From Shigella phage Sf13, in sequence record MF158040: a DNA stretch of 64,000 nucleotides, one strand, 5' to 3'. The position numbers were made by a program, and so were the translations under genes. Shown here piece after piece: positions 3,060 through 47,333 of the stretch (positions are counted from its first letter, which is position 1; the number at the start of each line of letters is the position of its first letter). Under the pieces are notes generated by a model that was not told the DNA's origin, did no database searches, and saw nothing but the letters and a program-made list of their open reading frames with translations.

Positions 3060-3067
3060 AACTATAC

Positions 3068-3092
3068 AGCCCCTTAATTGGGGCTTTTTATT
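3068..3092 (+). terminator. rho-independent terminator
   Basis: AGCCCC-TTAATT-GGGGCT hairpin followed by TTTTTATT, directly after the 2388..3059 stop. Confidence 0.6.
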
Positions 3093-4602
3093 GAGTAAAA
3101 TTTACTAAATTTATAATTTTTATAAAATTTGGGATTCACTCCGTTCATCTTGGGTCACCATGATATGTGATAAAATATCTATACCCTTCTAAACACCCTC
3201 TCTAAGCATCATCTCTATATAGTATTATATAGTATCTATATAGCCTCTTAGCCCCTAAATAGTGCTCTCTATATAGCCCTCTATAAAGCCTTCTAAGCCT
3301 ACCATTAATCAACCCTATACAATCACCTTCCTAACCTCTTCATAGCCCCTTAGAAGCCCCTATACTCATCTTAATCTCTAGGTAAACGATAGTACACTAT
3401 ATAGCAGAATCACTAGGTATTACTAAGCCTCTATATAGACTGTTATATAACACTAAACAGGTATTCCCTTCTAAGGCTTATCCTACAAGGTCTAACACGG
3501 TACTAACAAGGTCTCTTATAAGCCTGTTAATTCCTGTTTTATATAAGATAGTGTATAGATAGTTATTCAGTTCTATAAAATTTTTATAAAATAGACTAGG
3601 TAGTGTTTGTTTAGGAGTCTTTGGAGAATCTGAAAAATATCTACTTAGGGTGTATATCTGCTTGGTAGCCCTTAACAGCCCTGTAACATCCCCTTTGCAG
3701 TTTATTAAAATATCATTAACAATTTCTTAACAACTCTCTCAAGCTCTTAACATCTCTTCAGAGTTCTTAACAATCCCTTAACAGAACTAACAAGAGCTTA
3801 ACAAGTCTGTAACGTTGCTTACAAGAGTCTAACAAGTTGCTTATAAGTTGCTAAATAGTTAAATCTTAAGAGTTATTTTGTTAAGATAATTAACAAGGTG
3901 CTAACAAGTTCTAAACCTTTTTAACAGTCTCTTAACATGGTCACTATCTCTTGGTCTATAGTTCCCTATGTTTCTTAGTGATTCTCTATAAAGCCCTCTT
4001 AAAAGCTCTCTATAGCTCTGTATAGCCTCTTCTAAGCTTCTCCCTAGTAACTACACCCCAACTACCTGTATAGCTCTTTATAGGGCTTTCTAGGGGCTTA
4101 TACAGGTACTTCAAAGAGTCTAACAAGCTTTTAACATACCTCTAACAAGGATTTAACAAGGGGCTAACAAGTCTCTAATAAGCATAACTATGTAGCATTT
4201 GTTAAGATTTTGTTAAGAGAATGTAAAGGGGGCTAACTTTTACGTTACTTTTAAGGTTCTTTTACGTTACTTTGAAGACTCCATAACATACTTTAAAGCT
4301 ATTATCAAGCCCCTTTGTAACCATTCACAAGATTCTATCCAGCTTATAAGCTTATACCCTTATAAGATTCTTTTAAGGCTCTAGAAAGCTCTATAAAGGG
4401 CTTTTAAGAGTAGGTTAATATGATTGCTTAAGATGAGATGATAAGCCCGTATAGAGCGTTATAGAGCGTTTTAGGGATTGCCCTTCCCTTTCGGGTTATG
4501 GGCTTATATTTAAGTTGATTTGATAAGAGGATATAGAGTAAGCTATAGAGTTATTATTCTAAATGTATGGGATAGATTCTAGGAAGGTTTCTTTATAGAC
4601 GT
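3093..4602. other. 1.5 kb ORF-free region with short-motif arrays
   Basis: No ORF of 60 aa or more on either strand; + strand visibly G-poor; about 10 copies of (C/T)TAACAAG between 3490 and 4180; many CTATA(A/T)AG(C) motifs; tandem GTTATAGAGCG at about 4455-4480; bounded by inward-facing terminators. Confidence 0.5.
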
Positions 4603-4623
4603 AAAAAGCCCCATCTAAGGGGC
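4603..4623 (-). terminator. rho-independent terminator
   Basis: On the minus strand GCCCC-TTAGAT-GGGGC then TTTTT, just downstream of the 4666..4923 stop; a second GGGGC/GCCCC hairpin lies at about 4637-4651. Confidence 0.55.
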
Positions 4624-4665
4624 TGTAAAGGTGTCTGGGGCTATTTGCCCCGTTGCGGCGACTTG

Positions 4666-12376: not shown

Positions 12377-13171
12377 TTAGTTACGTGCTTCAACATAGCT
12401 TACGTTTTCATGTGTGATATAATCTTCTGCAAACTCTTCTGTAGTAGCATTGATATATACACTTGCATCATCGCCAAACGTTACCGCTCTGTGGTGGTGG
12501 CCTTGTAACGGGTGGGTAACTTGAGCGTTACTTCGATTGTACTTATCAACCGGAGGGTAACTGGTGTGTACCTTGCCATTACGCTTCACCTTGAGGGTAA
12601 CTTTATCCTTGCCTACCACAGCAACACCATCAAAGTATTGAGGCTCACTGAAGTTCTCCCAACCAGTAACAGGACTAGTCAACTGACTGTACATCTTATC
12701 TTCATAGACATACATATATACGTCAACATCTTTCATGGTCTGATTAATAATGGACAGCACAGCCATACTATCAAGACCACCAATCCCTGCACCAATCATA
12801 GGGAGTCCAACCTTCTTAAGCTGGTTTACTTTACAGTAGTTGTTAAGACGCTGTAAAGCTGCTTCTAAGGCATTGTATCGTGCATTTTTTCCAGTGATAA
12901 CCTGAGTATAAAGGTTAGCAATTCGACCCTGCTTCAAACGTGCTACAGAGATGTTACCAAGCATTAGATTCTTAGGGTTATGGTTTTCACCACCTACTGT
13001 AGCATAAACTTCAGCGTCAGTTTCATAAGCTTTTGGGTAGCGTTTAGCAATTGTTGCTGCGATACCTGCACCCATCAAGTTCATGCAGTTACAACCGTGA
13101 CCAATGATATCAAACTTCTTACCATCAAAGTCTTTAAAGATATCACCTTTAATAATTTTTACGATACCCAT
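12377..13171 (-). CDS. macrodomain protein (TARG1/DarG-like ADP-ribosyl hydrolase fold) with C-terminal extension
   Basis: KGDIF...DIIGHGCNCMNLMGAGIAATIAKRYP and LPMIGAGIGGLD resemble the TARG1-type macrodomain (GDLF...HCISEDCRMGAGIA...PRIGCGLD); about 110 aa unrecognised C-terminal region with a GHHH motif. ORF track start is 13228; ATG at 13171 (MGIVKIIKGD...) avoids a 56 nt overlap with the upstream gene. Start uncertain. Confidence 0.55.
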   Translation of the reverse strand: MGIVKIIKGDIFKDFDGKKFDIIGHGCNCMNLMGAGIAATIAKRYPKAYETDAEVYATVGGENHNPKNLMLGNISVARLKQGRIANLYTQVITGKNARYNALEAALQRLNNYCKVNQLKKVGLPMIGAGIGGLDSMAVLSIINQTMKDVDVYMYVYEDKMYSQLTSPVTGWENFSEPQYFDGVAVVGKDKVTLKVKRNGKVHTSYPPVDKYNRSNAQVTHPLQGHHHRAVTFGDDASVYINATTEEFAEDYITHENVSYVEARN

Positions 13172-17741: not shown

Positions 17742-20114
17742 TTAATCCCAGCATACAGTGTCTTCTGGAATGCTCTTAGTATCAAAACCTAAGAACTTAC
17801 CAACTTCGACGGGTGATACTTTATTCCAATCCAGATTAGAAAGCAAGAAGTTTTCTTTACGGCGTTTCTCAAAGTAATCTTTGAACTTACTTTCAAGACG
17901 CTTCTTAGCGTTATCCAGAACCTTTCTTGGCTTACAAGAACCTCTCATATTCCTACGAATGGTATCAAGAGTGCTGGTAATATCTTTGTAAGCAACTGGT
18001 GCAGCAGTATATGCCAAGCGTCCAAACATTGCTTCTATAGCCTCTTCATTCCCCTCTAAGAAAATAGTCTTCTTAAAATCTTTACTGTAAATGTGGCCTC
18101 TGGACTTACGCTTATCAGCAAACATAAAGTTTCGAGAAATCACATTACAATCAGTGATATCATGATTATTAGTCATATATTGGTGAGTCAAGTAACGGTG
18201 ATACTCAATCCAATGAGTATTATCAATAAAATCTTTCATCACTTGTTCATTGACTTCTGTCCAGTCTTCAGGAATCTTTTTCCAGTTGGCTTTACGGAAG
18301 ACATAAACTGACTGTCCAGTTAACTCTGTCATCAACGTTGCAGCACGTTCTGGTGAACATGAGAAGATTCCACCAATCACTTCATCACTCTGTGCTTTGA
18401 TATACAGTTGTGGTTCTTCAATCTCATCAAAGTTCTCTTTAACCTCTGTATAGCGAATCATGTCAGTATTTGGACATATAAATGCTTTATACAGTTTTAC
18501 AACACCACGTACAATAGTACGTTTTTCATAGTGGTGCTCTTTAGATGACATTGTATGCACACTTAACAGACTCTTGTCAAGCATATGCAAATCTACAAAC
18601 TCATCAAATTGCTGCTGACTGCTGAACAAGAAAGCGATACCATTGTAGCGACGGAAGTTAGAGTCTTCCTGTTCACGGTCACGGCAAGCTCCACGGATAA
18701 TCTGGTTTTTACCAGTTGTCTTCTCAGACCCGTTCTTGTTTCGACGGTCATTAATAAGGAACAAATAGTTGCTCAACTTATCTTTACTCATTGCACCAAA
18801 GATACTAAACATTGCTGCATCTTGTGAATAAGTTGCTGAAGTTGCTCGAATACGATTCTCCAGACTGCTGTACTTGTAGTATGCTACAGGTTCATACAGA
18901 TTACCAATATTAGGAACTGGATTACCATCTTTGTCAAGCCGCAAGTTACCTGCATCATCTTTCAAGAATGACGGAGAACCATCTGCTTCAGTTAACTGAC
19001 CACGACGGATACCTAACAGTTTTTGTTCAAGTTTTTTCAAGTTCTGGCCTTGCCATTCCAGAGAATCTTGGACGTGAATAAAGATTTCACGAGCCTCCTT
19101 CCTCATGGTATCATAGGCTTGAGCAGCATCAATCAGAGTTGGCTTGTTAGCAATCTCTTTTACCACATCTTCTACGATTGTCTTAGTGATTTTCTTCACA
19201 GCTTCAACAATCTTGGTCTTAGTGGTCTCATTCATCTGCAATGCTTCACGAGATGCAGCAATAGCCACTGAACCAATTGGCATGTAGATGTTAACAAGGT
19301 CTACAGCACTACGGAAGAACTGAGGCAGAATGCTTGTAAACTCTGAACCAAGCAACTCACCCATTTCAACAGGATAAGCAATATTACCCATGATTACATT
19401 GAAATGGACACTGTTACTATTTGAACGCCAGTTCTCTTTGTACTTCATTGCATCATAGACACCATCTTCACGAGAAATGGAAGTCATTGCTTCAAGAATG
19501 TCATAGTACTCAACATTACACTCTGGCTTAACTTTAAAGTACGAGTATACATTGCTCGCTTCTTCATGAAACTTGTTGATACGGTTATCGGATACCGCTA
19601 CTCGAACAGCTAAACCATTTGGCTCTGTAGTTGGGTTAGTAGTCAACTTAGTTACTTGAGGGATACCATTCTCAAGGTAAACTGAGTATTTGTTAACTAC
19701 ACCATCAACATAGCTTGATACAGTGAATGACTGAGCAATTGCAAATGGTGACTTTGAACCGATACCCATAGCACCAATGTAGTCATTTGAATCGTTTTTT
19801 GTAGATTCTCCATAGGTCATGTAAAGTTTCATAACTTTATCATGAGTCAGCCCTGTACCAAAGTCACGAACTTCAAAGAATGGCTCGAAACGAGTTGGTA
19901 AGTGAACCAAGAAAGGTTTATCAACGTTACCAGAATCAATGTGAGCATCTACTGCGTTACATGACAATTCACGAATTACAGCACGTTCTTTATATGTGTA
20001 AACACCTGAGCTTAGAAGACTGAACATTTCAGGTGTCATCTTAATCTGAGCCTGAGAGGTTTCCAGTGTACTTGAGCTTTTAATTACCGTTGCGTGGTCA
20101 TTTACCATGCGCAT
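17742..20114 (-). CDS. rIIA: rIIA-like protein (GHKL ATPase domain)
   Basis: 790 aa; N-terminal GHKL motifs (ELSCNAVDAH, VRDFGTGL, GAMGIGSKS); AAGGAGA Shine-Dalgarno; T4 rIIA-like size and gene order. Confidence 0.55.
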   Translation of the reverse strand: MRMVNDHATVIKSSSTLETSQAQIKMTPEMFSLLSSGVYTYKERAVIRELSCNAVDAHIDSGNVDKPFLVHLPTRFEPFFEVRDFGTGLTHDKVMKLYMTYGESTKNDSNDYIGAMGIGSKSPFAIAQSFTVSSYVDGVVNKYSVYLENGIPQVTKLTTNPTTEPNGLAVRVAVSDNRINKFHEEASNVYSYFKVKPECNVEYYDILEAMTSISREDGVYDAMKYKENWRSNSNSVHFNVIMGNIAYPVEMGELLGSEFTSILPQFFRSAVDLVNIYMPIGSVAIAASREALQMNETTKTKIVEAVKKITKTIVEDVVKEIANKPTLIDAAQAYDTMRKEAREIFIHVQDSLEWQGQNLKKLEQKLLGIRRGQLTEADGSPSFLKDDAGNLRLDKDGNPVPNIGNLYEPVAYYKYSSLENRIRATSATYSQDAAMFSIFGAMSKDKLSNYLFLINDRRNKNGSEKTTGKNQIIRGACRDREQEDSNFRRYNGIAFLFSSQQQFDEFVDLHMLDKSLLSVHTMSSKEHHYEKRTIVRGVVKLYKAFICPNTDMIRYTEVKENFDEIEEPQLYIKAQSDEVIGGIFSCSPERAATLMTELTGQSVYVFRKANWKKIPEDWTEVNEQVMKDFIDNTHWIEYHRYLTHQYMTNNHDITDCNVISRNFMFADKRKSRGHIYSKDFKKTIFLEGNEEAIEAMFGRLAYTAAPVAYKDITSTLDTIRRNMRGSCKPRKVLDNAKKRLESKFKDYFEKRRKENFLLSNLDWNKVSPVEVGKFLGFDTKSIPEDTVCWD

Positions 20115-20140
20115 AAGAATATCTCCTTAGTTGTCGATGT

Positions 20141-20176
20141 GGCAAACTATATAATTTTATAGATGCCACTGTCAAG
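20141..20176 (-). promoter_or_regulatory. putative sigma70-like promoter for rIIA
   Basis: Minus sense TTGACA-N16/17-TATAAAAT/TATATAG directly after the upstream stop; flanked by imperfect inverted repeat GTGGCA...TGCCAC. Confidence 0.4.
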
Positions 20177-20356
20177 TTACTTTTTAAATTTCTTTCCAGT
20201 TCCATTACAGTAAGGGCAACAATGACCTATACCAACTACCCCAGAACCTTCACACTCATCACAAGGTTCGGTCTCTGAGAAGTACTTGCATAGTAACACT
20301 GCAAAAGCAACTATACAACCGAGTGAAAGAACAATTTCTAACCAATAACCTTGCAT
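20177..20356 (-). CDS. small membrane-anchored zinc-ribbon protein (59 aa, below ORF-track cutoff)
   Basis: Read by eye: MQGYWLEIVLSLGCIVAFAVLLCKYFSETEPCDECEGSGVVGIGHCCPYCNGTGKKFKK; coordinates +/-1. Confidence 0.3.
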   Translation of the reverse strand: MQGYWLEIVLSLGCIVAFAVLLCKYFSETEPCDECEGSGVVGIGHCCPYCNGTGKKFKK

Positions 20357-20673
20357 ACCTTATCTCCTATAGTTCTGAATAGGACAAAACTCCTGTCATG
20401 GACAATACTCGAAGATACTGCAAAACTATTCTCAAGTATCTTTTTGTTTGGATTGTAAAATTCTTCTTGAAACAAATCAAGAGCTTCTTGATGGTTCTGT
20501 GGAAGACCTTTGATATAAACCTTCAAAGTAACCGTTGTATAAATCTCAGAAGCTAACTCTGATTGTGCTGCTTGAAACAGTTCATTGATAAACTTATGAC
20601 CATCTTCATGGCGCTTGATGTTTTCCCAACGCTCTTCAATGATTAAATTAACATTCATCTGTTTAATTTTCAT
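20338..20673 (-). CDS. hypothetical protein
   Basis: ORF track first codon appears to be GTG; in-frame ATG at 20673 (MKIKQM...) has GGAGA 5 nt upstream. Confidence 0.45.
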   Translation of the reverse strand: MKIKQMNVNLIIEERWENIKRHEDGHKFINELFQAAQSELASEIYTTVTLKVYIKGLPQNHQEALDLFQEEFYNPNKKILENSFAVSSSIVHDRSFVLFRTIGDKVCKVIG

Positions 20674-20690
20674 AGTAATCTCCACAAATT

Positions 20691-20711
20691 AAAAAGGCTC
20701 CCGTAGGAGCC
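20691..20711 (-). terminator. rho-independent terminator
   Basis: GGCTCC-TACG-GGAGCC then TTTTT on the minus strand, after the NAMPT-like stop. Confidence 0.55.
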
Positions 20712-20726
20712 TCTTATCATACTGTT

Positions 20727-22544
20727 TTAAAGTTGCTTGTCAATAGTATTTCGAACATCACGCAGGTTAATGTAACCATAAGGTTGCGAGTTGCTAAATA
20801 CCAGTTTCAAAGCACTATGACAATTGTCAATTGCACCTTCAAACTCTGCAAAGCCAAAACCATCTACAGCTACCAGCTTGTCACCATCCCACATAGGGAC
20901 AACTCCACCAAAAGCAGACTTCTTAAGACCGCTGTCAGTTTTAGGGTCTTTAGCCAGCATAATTTCTTGACCATCCATCTGTGCAAGAGTTGCTTTAACA
21001 GCAAATGCAAAGGTGTCACGAGTCAGGTACTGATAGGTGTATGAGCCTACACCAAACACTACGTTAGAACTTGCAAAACCTTTATCAGCAAGACGTGACA
21101 GAATCTCATTAGCCCTTTCCAGAGTGATAGAATCACCGTAGATTAGTCCAATGTGCTCATCCAGTACTTTGTACCCTTTGGAGTTAATAGTGCCACCAAA
21201 GATGTTATACAGCGTGTGGATAGCTCCGTCAATTTCTGCTGTCAGCATACGCTTCACAGTAAACTGTCCAGTTTTCTGAGCGGTAATCAGGTTGATTGTA
21301 TCAGCAGATTCAAAATCTTCTTTATCAACAACCATCTCATAACCTTCAGAGATTAGCCAAGCAGAGAACCCAAAGCCAATATCAGACATTTCACAATTCA
21401 AGATTGTGTCATGCAGATGTGTATTGTTCGGTGCAAGCTCTTTCATGTGCTTATAGAACATTGACTTAGCAGTTTCCCATTCAATGGCTTTGTAACCTGT
21501 GACAATGTGAACAGGGTCTCCAGAGTCTGGACGGATTACCAACTTACCATCACGATTCAGGATTACATTACGTAGCTCTGGCAGAATCTGTGTAACAGTA
21601 CGCCAGAAGTTGTAAGTATCTGATACGGCACTTGCAATACCAGTTGGGTAAACTTCTGTCAGAAGGCGATGGAAAGTTTCTACCTCACCACGCCAACGCA
21701 TTGCATCAAGTAAGTTGTCAGAATGCGATAGATGCCAATCACTTACCTCTTTGTTAAGACTGTTCCATGAGATGTTTGCACACATCACAGAGTGCTCAGT
21801 AGCTGGGACAGAGTTACCAATCTCACCTACATTCATAAACTGACCATATGCACGTTTAGCTGTATATACAGCAGGGAAGCTGTCAGTACCTTTAAAACTT
21901 GTCAGGTGACCTACTGCGTTAAACGCATCATCTGTGAAGCCAGACATACCACGCATTGCAAAGTCATGACACTGCCAAGGTAAATGGAAGTCGTTGTCAC
22001 AGGTCTTGTCAGCCCATTGCTTACAAATACGTTTGTAGTGCAGTGCAATTGTTGCAATCGTACAAGCTTTCCAGATTTCAGCAGAGAAAGCATCTTCAAG
22101 GTAACCAGCTACCCAATGGAATCCCTCTACAGTGTTTTTGAATACAATCATCGGGACACGCATAGGGACAATTGTACCTTCCTCTACAGAGTAGACTTCA
22201 ACAGGTAGGTAGCCCAAGTCATGAAGTTCTTCCCAATGTTGACGACCAATAGCATCTGCACCGAGAACACCATTCATGATTTCCAAGATTTCGTCAATGG
22301 CTTCTTTCTTATCACGTTCAAAGAACGTTGCATTCCAGTGGTCTACCAGATAGTCTTTTACAAAACGCTGAATACCAAAGGCTACAACACCATCAATCTC
22401 TAACGGAGAGTTAAACCATTTGTCTCCACGAGGTGTTAAGTTCAGCATAAGATACTGTGTAGCATCTGGATACTGGTAGAAATGGCCAGATTTGTAGGCA
22501 TCTGCATTAAGTGCTGCTGGTACTGCATAAAGTGATTTAGTCAT
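20727..22544 (-). CDS. nadV: nicotinamide phosphoribosyltransferase-family protein (NAMPT/NadV-like)
   Basis: 605 aa; NAMPT-like motifs AYKSGHFYQYP, RPDSGDP, GLIYGDSIT; longer than typical (about 470-500 aa) NAMPT. Confidence 0.7.
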   Translation of the reverse strand: MTKSLYAVPAALNADAYKSGHFYQYPDATQYLMLNLTPRGDKWFNSPLEIDGVVAFGIQRFVKDYLVDHWNATFFERDKKEAIDEILEIMNGVLGADAIGRQHWEELHDLGYLPVEVYSVEEGTIVPMRVPMIVFKNTVEGFHWVAGYLEDAFSAEIWKACTIATIALHYKRICKQWADKTCDNDFHLPWQCHDFAMRGMSGFTDDAFNAVGHLTSFKGTDSFPAVYTAKRAYGQFMNVGEIGNSVPATEHSVMCANISWNSLNKEVSDWHLSHSDNLLDAMRWRGEVETFHRLLTEVYPTGIASAVSDTYNFWRTVTQILPELRNVILNRDGKLVIRPDSGDPVHIVTGYKAIEWETAKSMFYKHMKELAPNNTHLHDTILNCEMSDIGFGFSAWLISEGYEMVVDKEDFESADTINLITAQKTGQFTVKRMLTAEIDGAIHTLYNIFGGTINSKGYKVLDEHIGLIYGDSITLERANEILSRLADKGFASSNVVFGVGSYTYQYLTRDTFAFAVKATLAQMDGQEIMLAKDPKTDSGLKKSAFGGVVPMWDGDKLVAVDGFGFAEFEGAIDNCHSALKLVFSNSQPYGYINLRDVRNTIDKQL

Positions 22545-22588
22545 CTTTTTATCTCTCTCAAAGTGGGGCTTTTCAGCCCCTAAAGTTG

Positions 22589-23470
22589 TTATTCAATATT
22601 TGCTACTGTCACTTGTGAGAAGTGGGAAAGACCACGGTCTTTTTCATCCCCTAGTGAGTCTGTAGTGTAGATATGGTCGATGCCATTGTCAAGAAGATTT
22701 TCAACACCTTTAGAGAAAATCCCATGAGTAACATAAAGCTCTACACGTTCTGCTCCAGCTTCACGAAGATACTTTGCAGCCTCGATAAAGGTTCGACCAC
22801 CATCACAGATATCATCCAGAATCATAACAGTCTTACCTGTTAAGTCTACATCATCAAGGATTCGCATACCAGTGATTTCACCAGTTTTCAGGTTTCGTAC
22901 CTTTGCCATTGTGATATAAGGTTTCTCAACCTCTTTAGCAGCCTCTTCAGTCTTCTTAGCTGCACCTGCATCTGGAGCCACTAAGTAATCAATGCGTGGG
23001 TCACTTGCAAAGTGGACTGCTGCCTCTTTTTGAGGGATGTTGTAGAAGCACTTAAACAAGTTCTCTGCTACATTACTGTGAGTATCCAGAGCACATACTG
23101 CATCAAACCCCATAGCATTTACAAGATTTGCAAAGACTTTAAGTGCTGCTGAATCGCCTTTAAACATGTGACGGTCATAGCGAGCATTTGGTAAGAATCC
23201 AAAAAGAACAGTTTTCATGGTTGCTTTCTGAGGAATCAAACGGTCAATAGCCTCTTTAGCCATAGCCAATGCAAAGAGTGTGTCTTTGTCATAACCTTGT
23301 ACAGTGAATATTACGTTTTCAATCTTACCAGCAGCATGTTCAGCAAAGTCTACTAAGTCTTCTGAGAAGTTACCACCAATCTCCCCAGAAGGGAACTGGA
23401 TAATGTTGAAGGTCTCTTGATGAGAACCTTTGGAATTTGAATTAAGTAGAACTCGAATAGTAGTTTTCAT
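22589..23470 (-). CDS. ribose-phosphate pyrophosphokinase-family protein (PRS-like)
   Basis: PRPP-binding motif MILDDICDGGRTF, typical PRS size; ORF track starts at a TTG (23488), in-frame ATG at 23470 used. Confidence 0.65.
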   Translation of the reverse strand: MKTTIRVLLNSNSKGSHQETFNIIQFPSGEIGGNFSEDLVDFAEHAAGKIENVIFTVQGYDKDTLFALAMAKEAIDRLIPQKATMKTVLFGFLPNARYDRHMFKGDSAALKVFANLVNAMGFDAVCALDTHSNVAENLFKCFYNIPQKEAAVHFASDPRIDYLVAPDAGAAKKTEEAAKEVEKPYITMAKVRNLKTGEITGMRILDDVDLTGKTVMILDDICDGGRTFIEAAKYLREAGAERVELYVTHGIFSKGVENLLDNGIDHIYTTDSLGDEKDRGLSHFSQVTVANIE

Positions 23471-23480
23471 AATATCTCTC

Positions 23481-23774
23481 TCAGTCAAAAGTTACAAATG
23501 TTACAGCCATAGCTGATTTACATTTCTTTGGGTCTACAATGTGGTAGATAACTGAACAGTTTCCTGTTCCGTCTGGTACTGGTTTTGTCCAAGTACGTTC
23601 AATATTTGGCTCTCCAAACTCTTTATAGAATCCGTTGGAGTAGTGGTCTATCATCTCAATAGCAAGTGCATCTGGGACGTGACCACGTATCATATACATC
23701 TCACTACCATTTCCAGCTTCGCTAATAAGCTCTTTGATATCCCATTGTTCTCTAGCCATGATAAGTTGCCTCAT
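23481..23774 (-). CDS. hypothetical protein
   Basis: ORF track begins with TTG; first in-frame ATG at 23774 (alternative 23759). Start uncertain. Confidence 0.35.
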   Translation of the reverse strand: MRQLIMAREQWDIKELISEAGNGSEMYMIRGHVPDALAIEMIDHYSNGFYKEFGEPNIERTWTKPVPDGTGNCSVIYHIVDPKKCKSAMAVTFVTFD

Positions 23775-24267
23775 AAACTGTCTCAAGCTTCAACAAGAGA
23801 GATATTGCCAGAAATGCGTATTCCCTGTCAAGCATTGGTGGCATATTATTTATAAGATATGCTTCCTGTTCTTCCCAAGTCATCTTAGGAGCTTCTGGAA
23901 GCTTCTCTCCTTGCTTCTGGTTATCTTCTTGAGTCTGGATAAACCAGTTCGAGCAATGGTGCTCTCCACCTTTTGTCACGGGCTTATGGTGGCCTAACGT
24001 GAAAGCTTTCTTTCCAGAATATCTACAAAGCTTATTAAGGGTTGCAATAGTATTCTTGACAACACAGTATTCATAGAGGTTGTCAATAGTGTAATGAGGG
24101 TAGTACTGGAACAAGGCACTATCACGGAACTTACCACGGTTCCAAAGCACCATGTGATTAGAATTTGAAGGGTCATACTGATGTGACTCGATGAACTCTT
24201 GACGCTCATCAAAATCAAGACGAAGAACAGACATTGCAGCAGCACGTTTCAGATTTGAATGGTACAT
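23752..24267 (-). CDS. HNH endonuclease (putative homing endonuclease)
   Basis: HNH signature FTLGHHKPVTKGGEHHCSNWFIQTQEDN; ATG start with GGAGAAATC Shine-Dalgarno. Confidence 0.55.
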   Translation of the reverse strand: MYHSNLKRAAAMSVLRLDFDERQEFIESHQYDPSNSNHMVLWNRGKFRDSALFQYYPHYTIDNLYEYCVVKNTIATLNKLCRYSGKKAFTLGHHKPVTKGGEHHCSNWFIQTQEDNQKQGEKLPEAPKMTWEEQEAYLINNMPPMLDREYAFLAISLLLKLETVYEATYHG

Positions 24268-24281
24268 GATTTCTCCAAAAT

Positions 24282-24306
24282 AAAAAGGGAACCTTTTACA
24301 GTTCCC
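24282..24306 (-). terminator. rho-independent terminator
   Basis: GGGAAC-loop-GTTCCC then TTTTTATTTT on the minus strand, after the 24320..24631 stop. Confidence 0.5.
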
Positions 24307-24319
24307 TAATCATATACGC

Positions 24320-24631
24320 TTACTGAGCTATTTTCAAGACTTTTAAGAAACCTTCCTCGCCAATTGCATCATAAACGTTTTCAGTTGGCTTGATAAGGTT
24401 GTTCAAGCATACAATCTTCTTACGCTTCTTGTCATAAGTAAGCTTCAGTTGTTTCAACTCTTTGTTATCTTCAGGGTGCTCATTGTACATCTTCACAGCT
24501 TCTTTGAAGCTAATGTAGCCACCACCTAAAGTAAGGAAACCTGTACCACAATAGTGGGAGTTGTGTTTATCAGCCATAAACTGGCACAGGATAGAAATCT
24601 GAATTTTACGAGTGTTATAAATCTTTTCCAT
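24320..24631 (-). CDS. hypothetical protein
   Basis: 103 aa ORF; ATG start. Confidence 0.5.
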   Translation of the reverse strand: MEKIYNTRKIQISILCQFMADKHNSHYCGTGFLTLGGGYISFKEAVKMYNEHPEDNKELKQLKLTYDKKRKKIVCLNNLIKPTENVYDAIGEEGFLKVLKIAQ

Positions 24632-33151: not shown

Positions 33152-33470
33152 GATATCTATCCAAGTTTCGTTTCAAGTAAATCCACTGGTCATCTGTGCG
33201 CTCTACACCCATGAACAGGGGGGCTACAACAACTTTACCAAAAGTATTTCTGTGCTGGCAAATCTCGTAAGAGTACGGTTTATCAATATTTAAGCCATAC
33301 TTATACAACACTGCTGCTAATACTTGTTCATTATCCAGAATCGTTTCTGGCTTCTCTCCGTACTTGTCTAACAGTGAATCATTCATAAACACTGTCATAG
33401 AGAGGTTGTAGTTGGAGAAGTGGCTTTTTGCCACCACTTCTTCACCTTTATTAATGTTCTGTGAATCCAT
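33144..33470 (-). CDS. hypothetical protein
   Basis: 108 aa ORF; ATG start; 8 nt overlap with downstream gene. Confidence 0.5.
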   Translation of the reverse strand: MDSQNINKGEEVVAKSHFSNYNLSMTVFMNDSLLDKYGEKPETILDNEQVLAAVLYKYGLNIDKPYSYEICQHRNTFGKVVVAPLFMGVERTDDQWIYLKRNLDRYHV

Positions 33471-34206
33471 TATAACCGACTCCTTTCAACCACTGCTTGA
33501 GGTTGATTGCATCATAATTCAATTTCGGATATGAGGTTACATGGAACTTCTCACCATCATAGTACACAATATCCGCAAGCCATAATCCATTCTCACGGCA
33601 GAAATCTTTATCTGCTTTTGAAGAGATTGGTTCAACTTTAGAAAAGTTTTTAATGCCAAGACTACCAAGACTTCCAATCAGTCCTTGGCAGATAACGCAT
33701 GTGTCAGATGTTACCACAAATAATTCTTTTGCGTCAACTTCTGCAATAAAACTTTCAAGTTGAACTTTTGGAAGATTAGACTGTTTCATAATCTTACCAT
33801 CAGACTTGCGAATAATCGCAAACCACTCTTTACCTTCAATGATTGATTGACGCAGGTAACATTCATCACCAGTACGTTTCTCAATATCAAACATTCGCTG
33901 TAGAGCTTCTTGATAGTCGTCTGTGTATTTGAGGTTGTTGTTTTCACAAACAGCCTTGATAGCACCATCATGGTCATGTTGTGTCAGGAAAATTAAACCA
34001 TCAAGTACATACTGCAAATCAGCTTGAGCATCAAGGGTCTCAACAGGGTCTTTGGCTTCTACTGCTGCGACTAACTCTCTAGCTTCTTCAAGCATACACA
34101 GAGATTGGCTTTTCAGTGATTCCCAATACTCTGTGCTGTATGGTTCTTTTGGATTATTGCCACAACGTAGATTCCAATTTCTTACGGATTCTCTGGAATT
34201 AAACAT
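33451..34206 (-). CDS. MazG-like NTP pyrophosphohydrolase domain fused to a CxxC thioredoxin-like domain (putative)
   Basis: N-terminal EYWESL...LEEARELVAAV...DAQADLQYVLDGL resembles the MazG EExxE/D motif pattern; C-terminal half has CVIC; 251 aa. Confidence 0.4.
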   Translation of the reverse strand: MFNSRESVRNWNLRCGNNPKEPYSTEYWESLKSQSLCMLEEARELVAAVEAKDPVETLDAQADLQYVLDGLIFLTQHDHDGAIKAVCENNNLKYTDDYQEALQRMFDIEKRTGDECYLRQSIIEGKEWFAIIRKSDGKIMKQSNLPKVQLESFIAEVDAKELFVVTSDTCVICQGLIGSLGSLGIKNFSKVEPISSKADKDFCRENGLWLADIVYYDGEKFHVTSYPKLNYDAINLKQWLKGVGYNGFTEH

Positions 34207-46029: not shown

Positions 46030-46236
46030 ATGCAGGTTCTGGTAAATTTTATCTATAAGTATGACGTTGTTCACTCAACTACAACTGTAGCACAACGTAA
46101 CCCAATAGTGCCACGAGAAGGTGAATGGGTAAGGATTGATGGTTGGACTTACACTGTAGAGAATATCATTCATAAGTTTGATGTTTGTGGAGACACACAA
46201 GTTATTGATGTAGAAATTGGTGGGAAACGTAAATGA
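46030..46236 (+). CDS. hypothetical protein
   Basis: ORF track start 45979 overlaps the upstream gene by 50 nt; in-frame ATG at 46030 has GGAGGA 8 nt upstream. Start uncertain. Confidence 0.4.
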   Translation: MQVLVNFIYKYDVVHSTTTVAQRNPIVPREGEWVRIDGWTYTVENIIHKFDVCGDTQVIDVEIGGKRK

Positions 46237-47333
46237 CAATTCTGTACAAACAAAATAAAGATGGTTCTTTTAACGTCTGGTCATGTGTTGCTGTAGGTGA
46301 TAAAGTAGTCACGACTTATGGCAAAGAAAATGGCAAGATGATGTTTGAAGAGTACACAGCAGAACCTAAGAACATCGGTAAAAAGAATGAGCGTAATGCT
46401 GAACAGCAAGCTCTCTTTGAGGTAGCTGCAAAGTATAAGAAGCAAGTTGACCGTAAAGGTTATGCTTACACTAAATCTGAAGCAGAGAATGTTGAAAAGG
46501 TCGGTGTACAGCTTGCTCATGATGCTGCAAAGATTAGCCACGAAAAATATCTGAAGTTTCCTGCTGACGCACAACCTAAACTTGATGGCGTTCGGTGCAG
46601 GATTTCAAGAGATGTTGACACAGTAAGCTTCACGGCTTATTCTCGTGAGAACACTGTTTATAACGTCCCAGCAGAGCTAATACCAGATTTGTTACTAATG
46701 CTGAAGTGCCACCCACAAGTTGAAGACTTTGATGGTGAGATTTATGCTCATGGTTGGGACTTAGAAGATATTGTATCCATGATTAAGAATGCTGACAATC
46801 CAGACCGTCACCTTCTTAAATTCTACTGGTATGATATCTGTGACAATACCAAGTCTTGGCCTGAGCGACGTGAAATCATTGACAACTCACCAATTGTTGA
46901 ACTTGGGGATGCTTGCAGGGTTGTACCTGTTCAAACTATCCGTGTTAACTCTTGGGAAGAGTTCGACAAAGCTCATGATAATTGGGTTAAGCTGAAGTTT
47001 GAGGGGGCTATGTACCGTTCAATCTCAGAAGAGTCTTTCTATGAGTGTGGTCACCGTTCGTACTTCTTGATTAAACACAAGAAGATGCACACGCAGGAGT
47101 TCATAGTAACTGCTGTCAAGACTGATAAACGTGGTCACGGTAAGTTCGTTGTAGAGACCCTTCCTAACGTCTTTGTAGATGTTTCATGGAAAACTACCCA
47201 TGAGAAGAAGCAGCATCTTGCTGAACATCCTGAAGAGTTTATCGGGAAGCCTTTAACGGTTCAGTTCCAGAAGATGACTCGTAAGGGGTCTTTGCAGTTC
47301 CCTGTTGGTCTCGTTATACGAGATTATGAATAA
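46233..47333 (+). CDS. ATP-dependent DNA ligase
   Basis: Adenylation motif I PKLDGVRC (KxDGxR); 366 aa. Confidence 0.6.
   Translation: MTILYKQNKDGSFNVWSCVAVGDKVVTTYGKENGKMMFEEYTAEPKNIGKKNERNAEQQALFEVAAKYKKQVDRKGYAYTKSEAENVEKVGVQLAHDAAKISHEKYLKFPADAQPKLDGVRCRISRDVDTVSFTAYSRENTVYNVPAELIPDLLLMLKCHPQVEDFDGEIYAHGWDLEDIVSMIKNADNPDRHLLKFYWYDICDNTKSWPERREIIDNSPIVELGDACRVVPVQTIRVNSWEEFDKAHDNWVKLKFEGAMYRSISEESFYECGHRSYFLIKHKKMHTQEFIVTAVKTDKRGHGKFVVETLPNVFVDVSWKTTHEKKQHLAEHPEEFIGKPLTVQFQKMTRKGSLQFPVGLVIRDYE

Follow-up and report, generated by a model that had tools for sequence, protein, structure and literature searches.

The window, that is, the whole analysed stretch of 64,000 nucleotides, belongs to a phage of the subfamily Ounavirinae (Mooglevirus) and shares 99.6% identity with Shigella phage Sf15 over 4.5 kb. 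ORF calling located two adjacent reading frames, of 605 aa and 293 aa, at the positions listed below. The initial annotation described them as a NAMPT-family gene directly upstream of a PRS-family gene on the same strand. Both family assignments were confirmed with Pfam (NAPRTase, E = 8.5e-32, and NAMPT_N for the longer protein; Pribosyltran and Pribosyl_synth for the shorter one). The adjacency and the shared strand also held, but the order did not. Since the two genes are encoded on the minus strand, the PRS-like gene comes first (5′) and the NAMPT-like gene second (3′) in the direction of transcription. The two genes, here called adps and namat, are co-oriented and separated by a 44-nt spacer. 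The order adps and then namat is the canonical one of NARP1 (NAD+ reconstitution pathway 1). An alternative TTG start of the PRS-like ORF at 23488 was rejected; it overlaps the upstream gene and is unsupported by the Sf15 annotation or by alignment with phage Bas63 (reference sequence MZ501086). The features of the locus are as follows.

22589..23470, minus strand: adps, ADP-ribose pyrophosphokinase (Prs family, by homology), 293 aa, gene 1 of the pair
22565..22580, minus strand: GC hairpin GGGGCU GAAA AGCCCC, then GAGAGAGAU (Shine-Dalgarno-like), between adps and namat
20727..22544, minus strand: namat, nicotinamide ADP-ribose transferase (Nampt family, by homology), 605 aa, gene 2 of the pair
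22416..22427, minus strand: codons of the putative selectivity-clamp loop of Namat, G40-D41-K42-W43, with Lys at position 3 and an aromatic stacker at position 4
21687..21773, minus strand: insertion 1 of Namat when compared with the SPbetaL1 protein, covering approximately residues 258-286, modelled as helices (pLDDT 83-94)
21228..21491, minus strand: insertion 2 of Namat, covering approximately residues 352-439, a predicted compact alpha/beta subdomain missing from the 491-496-aa forms of Namat
21015..21047, minus strand: codons of the selectivity-clamp helix (SCH) motif, G500-S-Y502-T-Y-Q-Y506-L-T-R-D510, matching the Namat signature
20692..20715, minus strand: terminator-like hairpin with a T-run directly past the namat stop codon (10-bp stem with 5 GC pairs, then TTTTTAATTT)
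12377..13171, minus strand: macro-domain protein, 264 aa, putative Adpp-like accessory gene, about 7.5 kb downstream of namat

The pair is situated in an early nucleotide-metabolism region with nrdA/B, nrdD/G, thymidylate synthase, DHFR and dNMP kinase genes, and the arrangement nrdD-nrdG...adps-namat...rIIA-rIIB is common to the window and Bas63. Two small ORFs (23481-24267) are located upstream of adps. The GC hairpin noted earlier between the two genes is present in the spacer. It folds with a dG of -12.8 kcal/mol (z = -3.6 relative to shuffled sequences), and its stem is identical in Bas63. The terminator scan did not call it an intrinsic terminator because only 3-4 T residues, and no long T run, come 3′ of the stem. 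Searches of the whole window with Rfam and ARAGORN returned no RNA families and no tRNAs.

The PRS-like protein is 100% identical to Sf15 gp26 and shows 81% identity to Bas63_0079 (gp79) in a gap-free alignment. It keeps the catalytic motifs of Prs (FxxGE, RxDR, H and DD). The HMM comparison with bona fide Prs proposed in the initial annotation placed the protein below every NCBIfam Prs equivalog cutoff (55-107 bits against cutoffs of 296-536 bits; the best score was 106.9 against a cutoff of 296), and only the broad subfamily model TIGR01251 was passed (133.5 against 113). Together with the Bas63 identity and the listing in Supplementary Table 1 of Osterman et al., these scores place the protein, as far as sequence can tell, in the phage-specific Adps clade apart from bacterial Prs. 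Pairwise scores differ little (94.7 bits for SPbetaL1 Adps and 72 bits for E. coli Prs); since they barely favour SPbetaL1 Adps, the assignment rests on Bas63 orthology and gene pairing. The 5-phosphate-binding loop was considered as an Adps signature. It reads DGGRT in the window and Bas63 and DTGGT in E. coli Prs, and it was dropped as a family-wide marker because SPbetaL1 Adps reads SFGGT. A literature search found neither an Adps structure nor a published structural signature for Adps.

The NAMPT-like protein is 100% identical to Sf15 gp25 and 76% identical to Bas63_0080 (gp80). Its top sequence match in the PDB was SPbetaL1 Namat (9W5W/9W5X, E = 3e-125). The AF2 model (pLDDT 92.3) was compared with known structures by Foldseek, and the SPbetaL1 Namat crystal structures were again the best match of the predicted fold (9W5X, target-normalised TM 0.94). 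The catalytic core described for SPbetaL1 Namat consists of D13, Y15, F189, R192, D215, the catalytic His, R306, D308, G360-D361, R399 and D400 (PMC12774641). The equivalents in the window protein, D15, Y17, F195, R198, D221, H251, R338, D340, G470-D471, R509 and D510, are all intact.

Two further elements bear on substrate selectivity. The clamp helix of Namat carries the signature GSXPhiXPhiXPhiTRD, in which positions 3 and 7 are aromatic (PMC12774641). The window protein reads GSYTYQYLTRD, with Y502 and Y506 at these positions. The corresponding segments of true Nampt enzymes are GAQTYQRNTRD in HdNadV (Q and R at the key positions) and GGALLQKVDRD in Xcc (A and K), and in the alignment the two adenine-stacking aromatics are missing from the HdNadV, Xcc and human enzymes. 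For the clamp loop, the published rule calls for Arg at position 3, or for Lys or Tyr at position 3 with an adenine stacker at position 4 (PMC12774641). The window protein has Lys followed by Trp (K42-W43), with W43 as the predicted adenine stacker. The K-W arrangement is shared with Bas63 (S-D-K-W).

The initial annotation remarked that the NAMPT-like protein is about 100 aa longer than typical, which agrees with the 605 aa found here against 491 aa in SPbetaL1 Namat. The excess is accounted for by the two insertions, both of which also occur in Bas63 Namat, where insertion 1 is shorter by 12 aa than in the window. Insertion 2 (about 88 aa) has a confident predicted fold without a relative among solved structures.

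The absence of a visible NMNAT from the window was borne out at Pfam sensitivity. Pfam was run in three batches over 94 greedily called window ORFs other than the pair, and no NMNAT or CTP_transf_like domain was found at E <= 0.01 among the matches listed. One batch gave the best 25 of 27 families, the other two ranking below matches with E up to 0.004. No nucleotidyltransferase, NMNAT or Nudix family was detected among the matches listed for these ORFs or in 10 hypothetical proteins of Sf15. For the part of the genome beyond the window, no NMNAT is annotated in the near-identical Sf15 genome, and Pfam revealed none in its 10 best-sized hypothetical proteins.

NARP1, composed of Adps and Namat, was first discovered in Bas63 and tested by operon deletion (Osterman et al., bioRxiv 10.1101/2024.02.11.579819). 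The deletion made Bas63 sensitive to SIR2-HerA, with a modest effect of about 20-fold in plaque count; ADPR-pyrophosphate (ADPR-PP) was detected solely when the operon was intact, and protection was kept in a host without pncC and nadR (10.1101/2024.02.11.579819). Protection against NAD+-depleting defence has been demonstrated with deletion mutants of Bas63 and FADO as well as with a knock-in in SBSphiJ. The Adps and Namat activities have been established with SPbetaL1 proteins and, for Bas63, by metabolite detection in vivo. Sequence homology, conserved synteny, the Namat signature and the fold prediction indicate that the pair in the window is a NARP1 operon, to which we assign a probability of about 0.93. 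The chemistry and the counter-defence role are inferred from the experiments with Bas63 and SPbetaL1. By analogy, a NAD+-depleting defence (SIR2-HerA, type I Thoeris, DSR1/DSR2 or SEFIR) would split NAD+ into ADP-ribose and nicotinamide, Adps would transfer pyrophosphate from ATP onto ADP-ribose to give ADPR-PP, and Namat would join ADPR-PP directly with nicotinamide to yield NAD+ and PPi. NAD+ would thus be rebuilt without an NMN intermediate, and NMNAT would be unneeded. The two-enzyme route proposed initially for a PRS and NAMPT pair without NMNAT is therefore supported by Bas63 orthology, synteny and the Namat signature.

Two other readings were weighed. According to the database annotations and the Pfam and NCBIfam names, the pair could boost classical salvage: the first enzyme would convert ribose-5-phosphate to PRPP, the second would combine PRPP with nicotinamide into NMN, and NAD+ would then be completed by NadR or PncC/NadD of the host. 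The conserved Prs motifs are compatible with such a route, as is the published observation that Namat keeps some PRPP-dependent NMN synthesis in vitro. However, the Bas63 orthologs (76-81% identity) counter the defence without host pncC and nadR and with ADPR-PP detected, the window Namat has the SCH aromatics that enforce ADPR-PP selectivity and that true Nampt enzymes lack, and Adps misses all the Prs equivalog cutoffs. We consider salvage very improbable. Still less probable is a general nucleotide supply, in which the PRS-like enzyme would raise PRPP for purine and pyrimidine synthesis beside the ribonucleotide reductases and have no role in defence. The location of the pair in the early nucleotide-metabolism region fits this reading, but the strict pairing with Namat, which adjoins 97% of Adps-clade genes, is left unexplained, and so is the Bas63 deletion phenotype, which is specific to NAD+-depleting defence.

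The NARP1 assignment is correct but not new, contrary to what was first implied. The pair is already catalogued in this phage lineage: Supplementary Table 1 enters Sf15 Adps among the Prs/Adps homologs, marked 'Namat within 10 genes: Yes', and Supplementary Table 2 classes Sf15 Namat as an 'Adps-associated' Namat homolog (Osterman et al., 10.1101/2024.02.11.579819). With the pathway discovered in a sister genus and the identical Sf15 proteins present in published homolog tables, the system must be regarded as known, and the locus adds nothing to NARP1 itself. NARP1 is an important recent discovery, as it shows that viruses restore a metabolite destroyed by host immunity. The public labels 'nicotinamide phosphoribosyltransferase' and 'ribose-phosphate pyrophosphokinase' are misleading for these genes. 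Where Mooglevirus phages are used for therapy against Shigella or E. coli, resistance to SIR2, Thoeris and DSR-type defences would be expected by analogy.

The window also encodes a macro-domain protein (Pfam Macro, E = 3.5e-8), the best PDB match of which is yeast Poa1p, an ADPR-1′′-phosphate phosphatase (E = 4e-5). It shows 31% identity to Adpp of Vibrio phage Gary across the full length of the latter. It belongs to phrog_335, as do Gary Adpp and the macro protein neighbouring NARP1 in JG004; this group is widespread (2775 phage records). The macro domain itself is similar to that of DarG as well, and the protein has an extra C-terminal region of about 105 aa that is family-specific. No macro gene lies in or beside the NARP1 operon, the one at 12377-13171 being the sole macro-domain gene of the window. 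Sf15 and Bas63 are both absent from Table S1 of the paper on NARP1-associated macro genes (10.64898/2026.01.28.702374). Acting in trans, the macro protein might dephosphorylate ADPR-1′′-phosphate made by aRES-type defences and so feed Adps and Namat. If this were true, the published neighbour-based survey would have overlooked such a capability. The joint reading, that NARP1 of Ounavirinae is extended in trans by the macro protein and, separately, that insertion 2 is regulatory or partner-binding, is tentative and on balance unlikely.

Among known systems, Bas63 (JohannRWettstein; bas63_0079 for Adps and bas63_0080 for Namat) is the closest. It shares with the window the subfamily Ounavirinae, the gene order, the flanking genes, the intergenic hairpin stem, the long form of Namat with both insertions, the K-W clamp loop and the SCH motif. 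It differs in being a Felixounavirus rather than a Mooglevirus and in having been tested experimentally, whereas the window phage is known from its sequence. SPbetaL1, the source of NARP1 biochemistry, shares the Namat fold, the catalytic residues and the SCH aromatics at positions 3 and 7. Its identity to the window proteins is 36-37% for Namat and 34% for Adps, its Namat of 491 aa is devoid of both insertions, and its stacker is Arg40 in place of Lys42-Trp43.

Bacterial Prs and NadV/NAMPT have superfamilies, folds and catalytic cores in common with the window pair. They are set apart by the score of Adps under the Prs equivalog cutoffs and by the two adenine-stacking aromatics, which true Nampt lacks. 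NARP2 of Vibrio phage KVP40 (Nampt/NadV and a bifunctional Nmnat) likewise provides phage NAD+ reconstitution via a Nampt-family enzyme. It requires NMNAT and proceeds through PRPP and NMN, whereas the searches described above turned up no NMNAT, and the Nampt-family protein of the window carries the Namat clamp. Finally, NARP1-AP (Adps-Adpp-Namat) of Vibrio phage Gary (bioRxiv 10.64898/2026.01.28.702374) has in common with the window Adps, Namat and a macro protein of the Adpp PHROG family. In NARP1-AP the Adpp gene is located within or beside the operon, whereas in the window the macro gene is separated from namat by some 13 genes and 7.5 kb.

The two adjacent genes most probably rebuild NAD+ through NAD+ reconstitution pathway 1 (NARP1), and we put the probability of this mechanism at about 93%. 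A defence NADase would first split NAD+. The ADP-ribose pyrophosphokinase of the Prs family (Adps) would then pyrophosphorylate ADP-ribose with ATP as the donor, and the nicotinamide ADP-ribose transferase of the Nampt family (Namat) would condense ADPR-pyrophosphate (ADPR-PP) with nicotinamide, restoring NAD+. The window itself provides support from homology and synteny, from sequence signatures and from the predicted fold; both the chemistry and the counter-defence phenotype are attributed to the pair by analogy with experiments on Bas63 and SPbetaL1. The relevant features are:

20727-22544, minus strand: namat, NAMPT-like ORF of 605 aa (ORF call; Pfam NAPRTase, E=8.5e-32, and NAMPT_N)
22589-23470, minus strand: adps, PRS-like ORF of 293 aa (ORF call; Pfam Pribosyltran and Pribosyl_synth)
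22565-22580, minus strand: hairpin GGGGCU-GAAA-AGCCCC within the 44-nt adps-namat spacer
20692-20715, minus strand: terminator-like hairpin with T-run, directly 3′ of namat
12377-13171, minus strand: macro-domain protein of 264 aa (Sf15 gp11), syntenic with bas63_0095 ('putative phosphatase')

With both genes on the minus strand, it is the PRS-like one that comes first, as the 5′ member of the pair. The initial annotation was right about adjacent genes on one strand but had placed the NAMPT-like gene upstream. The GC hairpin it described between them is present, with a folding energy of -12.8 kcal/mol (z=-3.6 versus shuffles); its stem is identical in Bas63, and a ribosome-binding-like sequence, GAGAGAGAU, lies 3′ of it. 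A TTG at 23488 was rejected as the adps start, since it would overlap the preceding gene and homologs give it no support. Two conserved small ORFs with no assigned function, 23481-23759 and 23752-24267 (both minus strand), lie immediately 5′ of adps, the nearer ending 10 nt ahead of its start codon. They belong to phrog_4726 and to phrog_3500, the latter with weak HNH-like matches, and may be co-transcribed with NARP1. Their Bas63 counterparts, bas63_0077 and bas63_0078, were left in place in the published deletion.

The discovery of NARP1 was made in Bas63 (JohannRWettstein), a BASEL phage and Felixounavirus that belongs, like the window phage, to the Ounavirinae (Osterman et al., bioRxiv 10.1101/2024.02.11.579819). 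Its genes 79 and 80 are annotated as prs and nicotinamide phosphoribosyltransferase. Loss of the pair increased sensitivity to SIR2-HerA about 20-fold and deepened NAD+ loss, protection was still seen in a host without pncC and nadR, and ADPR-PP was found only with an intact operon and the defence system present. The purified SPbetaL1 homologs convert ADPR and ATP to ADPR-PP, and ADPR-PP and nicotinamide to NAD+. Compared with Bas63 (MZ501086), the window Adps is 81% identical to gp79 (293/293 aligned, no gaps) and Namat is 76% identical to gp80. Both genomes share the order nrdD, nrdG, small ORFs, adps-namat, small ORFs, rIIA, rIIB. In megablast, 20000-24500 matched Shigella phage Sf15 (Ounavirinae, Mooglevirus) over its full length at 99.6% identity; some 260 records from related Ounavirinae matched too. 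At the protein level, Adps and Namat show 100% identity to their Sf15 counterparts. The pair is already known and catalogued for this lineage: the supplementary tables of Osterman et al. list Sf15 MF158041_00026 as a Prs/Adps homolog ('Namat within 10 genes: Yes') and MF158041_00025 as an 'Adps-associated' Namat homolog. The two-enzyme route from ADP-ribose and nicotinamide, proposed initially, is supported by Bas63 orthology, synteny and the Namat signature.

The HMM and structure comparison suggested with that proposal also agreed with it. Adps exceeded the cutoff of the broad TIGR01251 subfamily model only and fell below every Prs equivalog cutoff (e.g., 106.9 bits versus 296). Its identity is 34% (94.7 bits) with SPbetaL1 Adps, whose biochemistry has been characterised, and 30% (72 bits) with E. 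coli Prs, so the putative assignment is based mainly on Bas63 orthology and pairing with Namat. A literature search found no published Adps structural signature; a candidate loop difference was dropped as a marker because SPbetaL1 Adps does not share it. One 547-position profile, phrog_12872, matches both Adps (positions 30-237) and Namat (346-533), which implies putative fused proteins in some phages.

For Namat, the best PDB sequence matches were SPbetaL1 Namat (9W5W/9W5X, E=3e-125), HdNadV (9KE8, E=1e-99) and human NAMPT (several entries, E=1e-39). The AlphaFold2 model (38-sequence alignment as input; pLDDT 92.3, pTM 0.91) had Namat crystal structures as its top Foldseek matches (target-normalised TM 0.94). 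Catalytic-core equivalents are all present (D15, Y17, F195, R198, D221, H251, R338, D340, G470-D471, R509, D510). The clamp-helix motif reads G500-S-Y502-T-Y-Q-Y506-L-T-R-D510; in the same alignment output, its aromatics are missing from bona fide Nampt (HdNadV, GAQTYQRNTRD; Xcc Nampt, GGALLQKVDRD). The clamp loop is G40-D-K42-W43. According to the 2026 NAR paper reporting 9W5W/9W5X and the Namat-versus-Nampt criteria (PMC12774641), this loop adds a further stacking residue, either an Arg in position 3 or, where that position is Lys/Tyr, a stacker at position 4, the latter being the Bas63 type. The unusual length noticed earlier (605 versus 491 aa in SPbetaL1 Namat) reflects extra sequence inserted at two places, around residues 258-286 and 352-439. 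Both insertions occur in Bas63 Namat (593 aa) and other 590-610-aa homologs and are lacking in 495-496-aa phage and enterobacterial forms; they are compatible with function because the Bas63 operon, which carries both, works in vivo. Many chromosomal 495-496-aa homologs were found in Klebsiella, Phytobacter, Kosakonia, Erwinia and Citrobacter (43-46% identity, local alignments over about 57% of the window Namat). Their motif, GSYTYQYNTRD or GSFTYQYNTRD, is of Namat type, which suggests NARP1-like or Namat-type enzymes in Enterobacteriaceae.

Pfam scans of the 94 other window ORFs detected no NMNAT, cytidylyltransferase-like or Nudix family, in line with the initial annotation. Beyond the window, the Sf15 genome carries genes for structural proteins and tRNAs along with small hypothetical proteins, 10 of which were negative for NMNAT by Pfam. 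These negative results are consistent with NARP1, a pathway that can do without an NMNAT, and rule out the Nampt-Nmnat route (NARP2). The pair might instead perform classical PRPP/NMN salvage finished by host enzymes, or supply PRPP generally for nucleotide synthesis; the Bas63 data and the Namat clamp residues speak against both, and each is disfavoured relative to NAD+ rebuilding by Adps and Namat.

Elsewhere, the phage DNA ligase is ATP-dependent, not NAD+-dependent (Pfam DNA_ligase_A_M and DNA_ligase_OB_2); its putative assignment to the 366-aa ORF at 46233-47330 (plus strand) is by ORF size only. A MazG/PRA-PH-like pyrophosphohydrolase is encoded at 33454-34206 (minus strand). A 1.6-kb stretch at ~3060-4665, with no ORF of at least 45 aa, tRNA or Rfam match, contains packed short direct repeats (CTCTATAnAGC-type and TTAACAA-type, 10-12 nt spacing) and many inverted repeats. 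It coincides with a switch of transcription direction and GC skew, and its Sf15 counterpart is likewise unannotated. It looks iteron-like and could be an origin or regulatory region.

The macro-domain protein had yeast Poa1p, an ADPR-1''-phosphate phosphatase, as its best PDB match and aligns along the entire Adpp of Vibrio phage Gary (31% identity), with an additional C-terminal region of about 105 aa. Its PHROG family, phrog_335, also includes Gary Adpp and the macro protein from the NARP1 neighbourhood of phage JG004. Since the family is very widespread, Sf15 and Bas63 are absent from the table of the NARP1-AP paper (bioRxiv 10.64898/2026.01.28.702374), and the protein resembles the DarG antitoxin macro domain (sub-threshold match, E=9e-15), an Adpp role is only a hypothesis; given the DarG match, an anti-DarT role would be an alternative. 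In NARP1-AP, the pathway overcomes aRES defence with Adpp as accessory enzyme (same paper). In the window, the putative Adpp homolog is encoded on the same strand as the pair but outside the operon, about 7.5 kb downstream, a distance that also weighs on the Adpp assignment.
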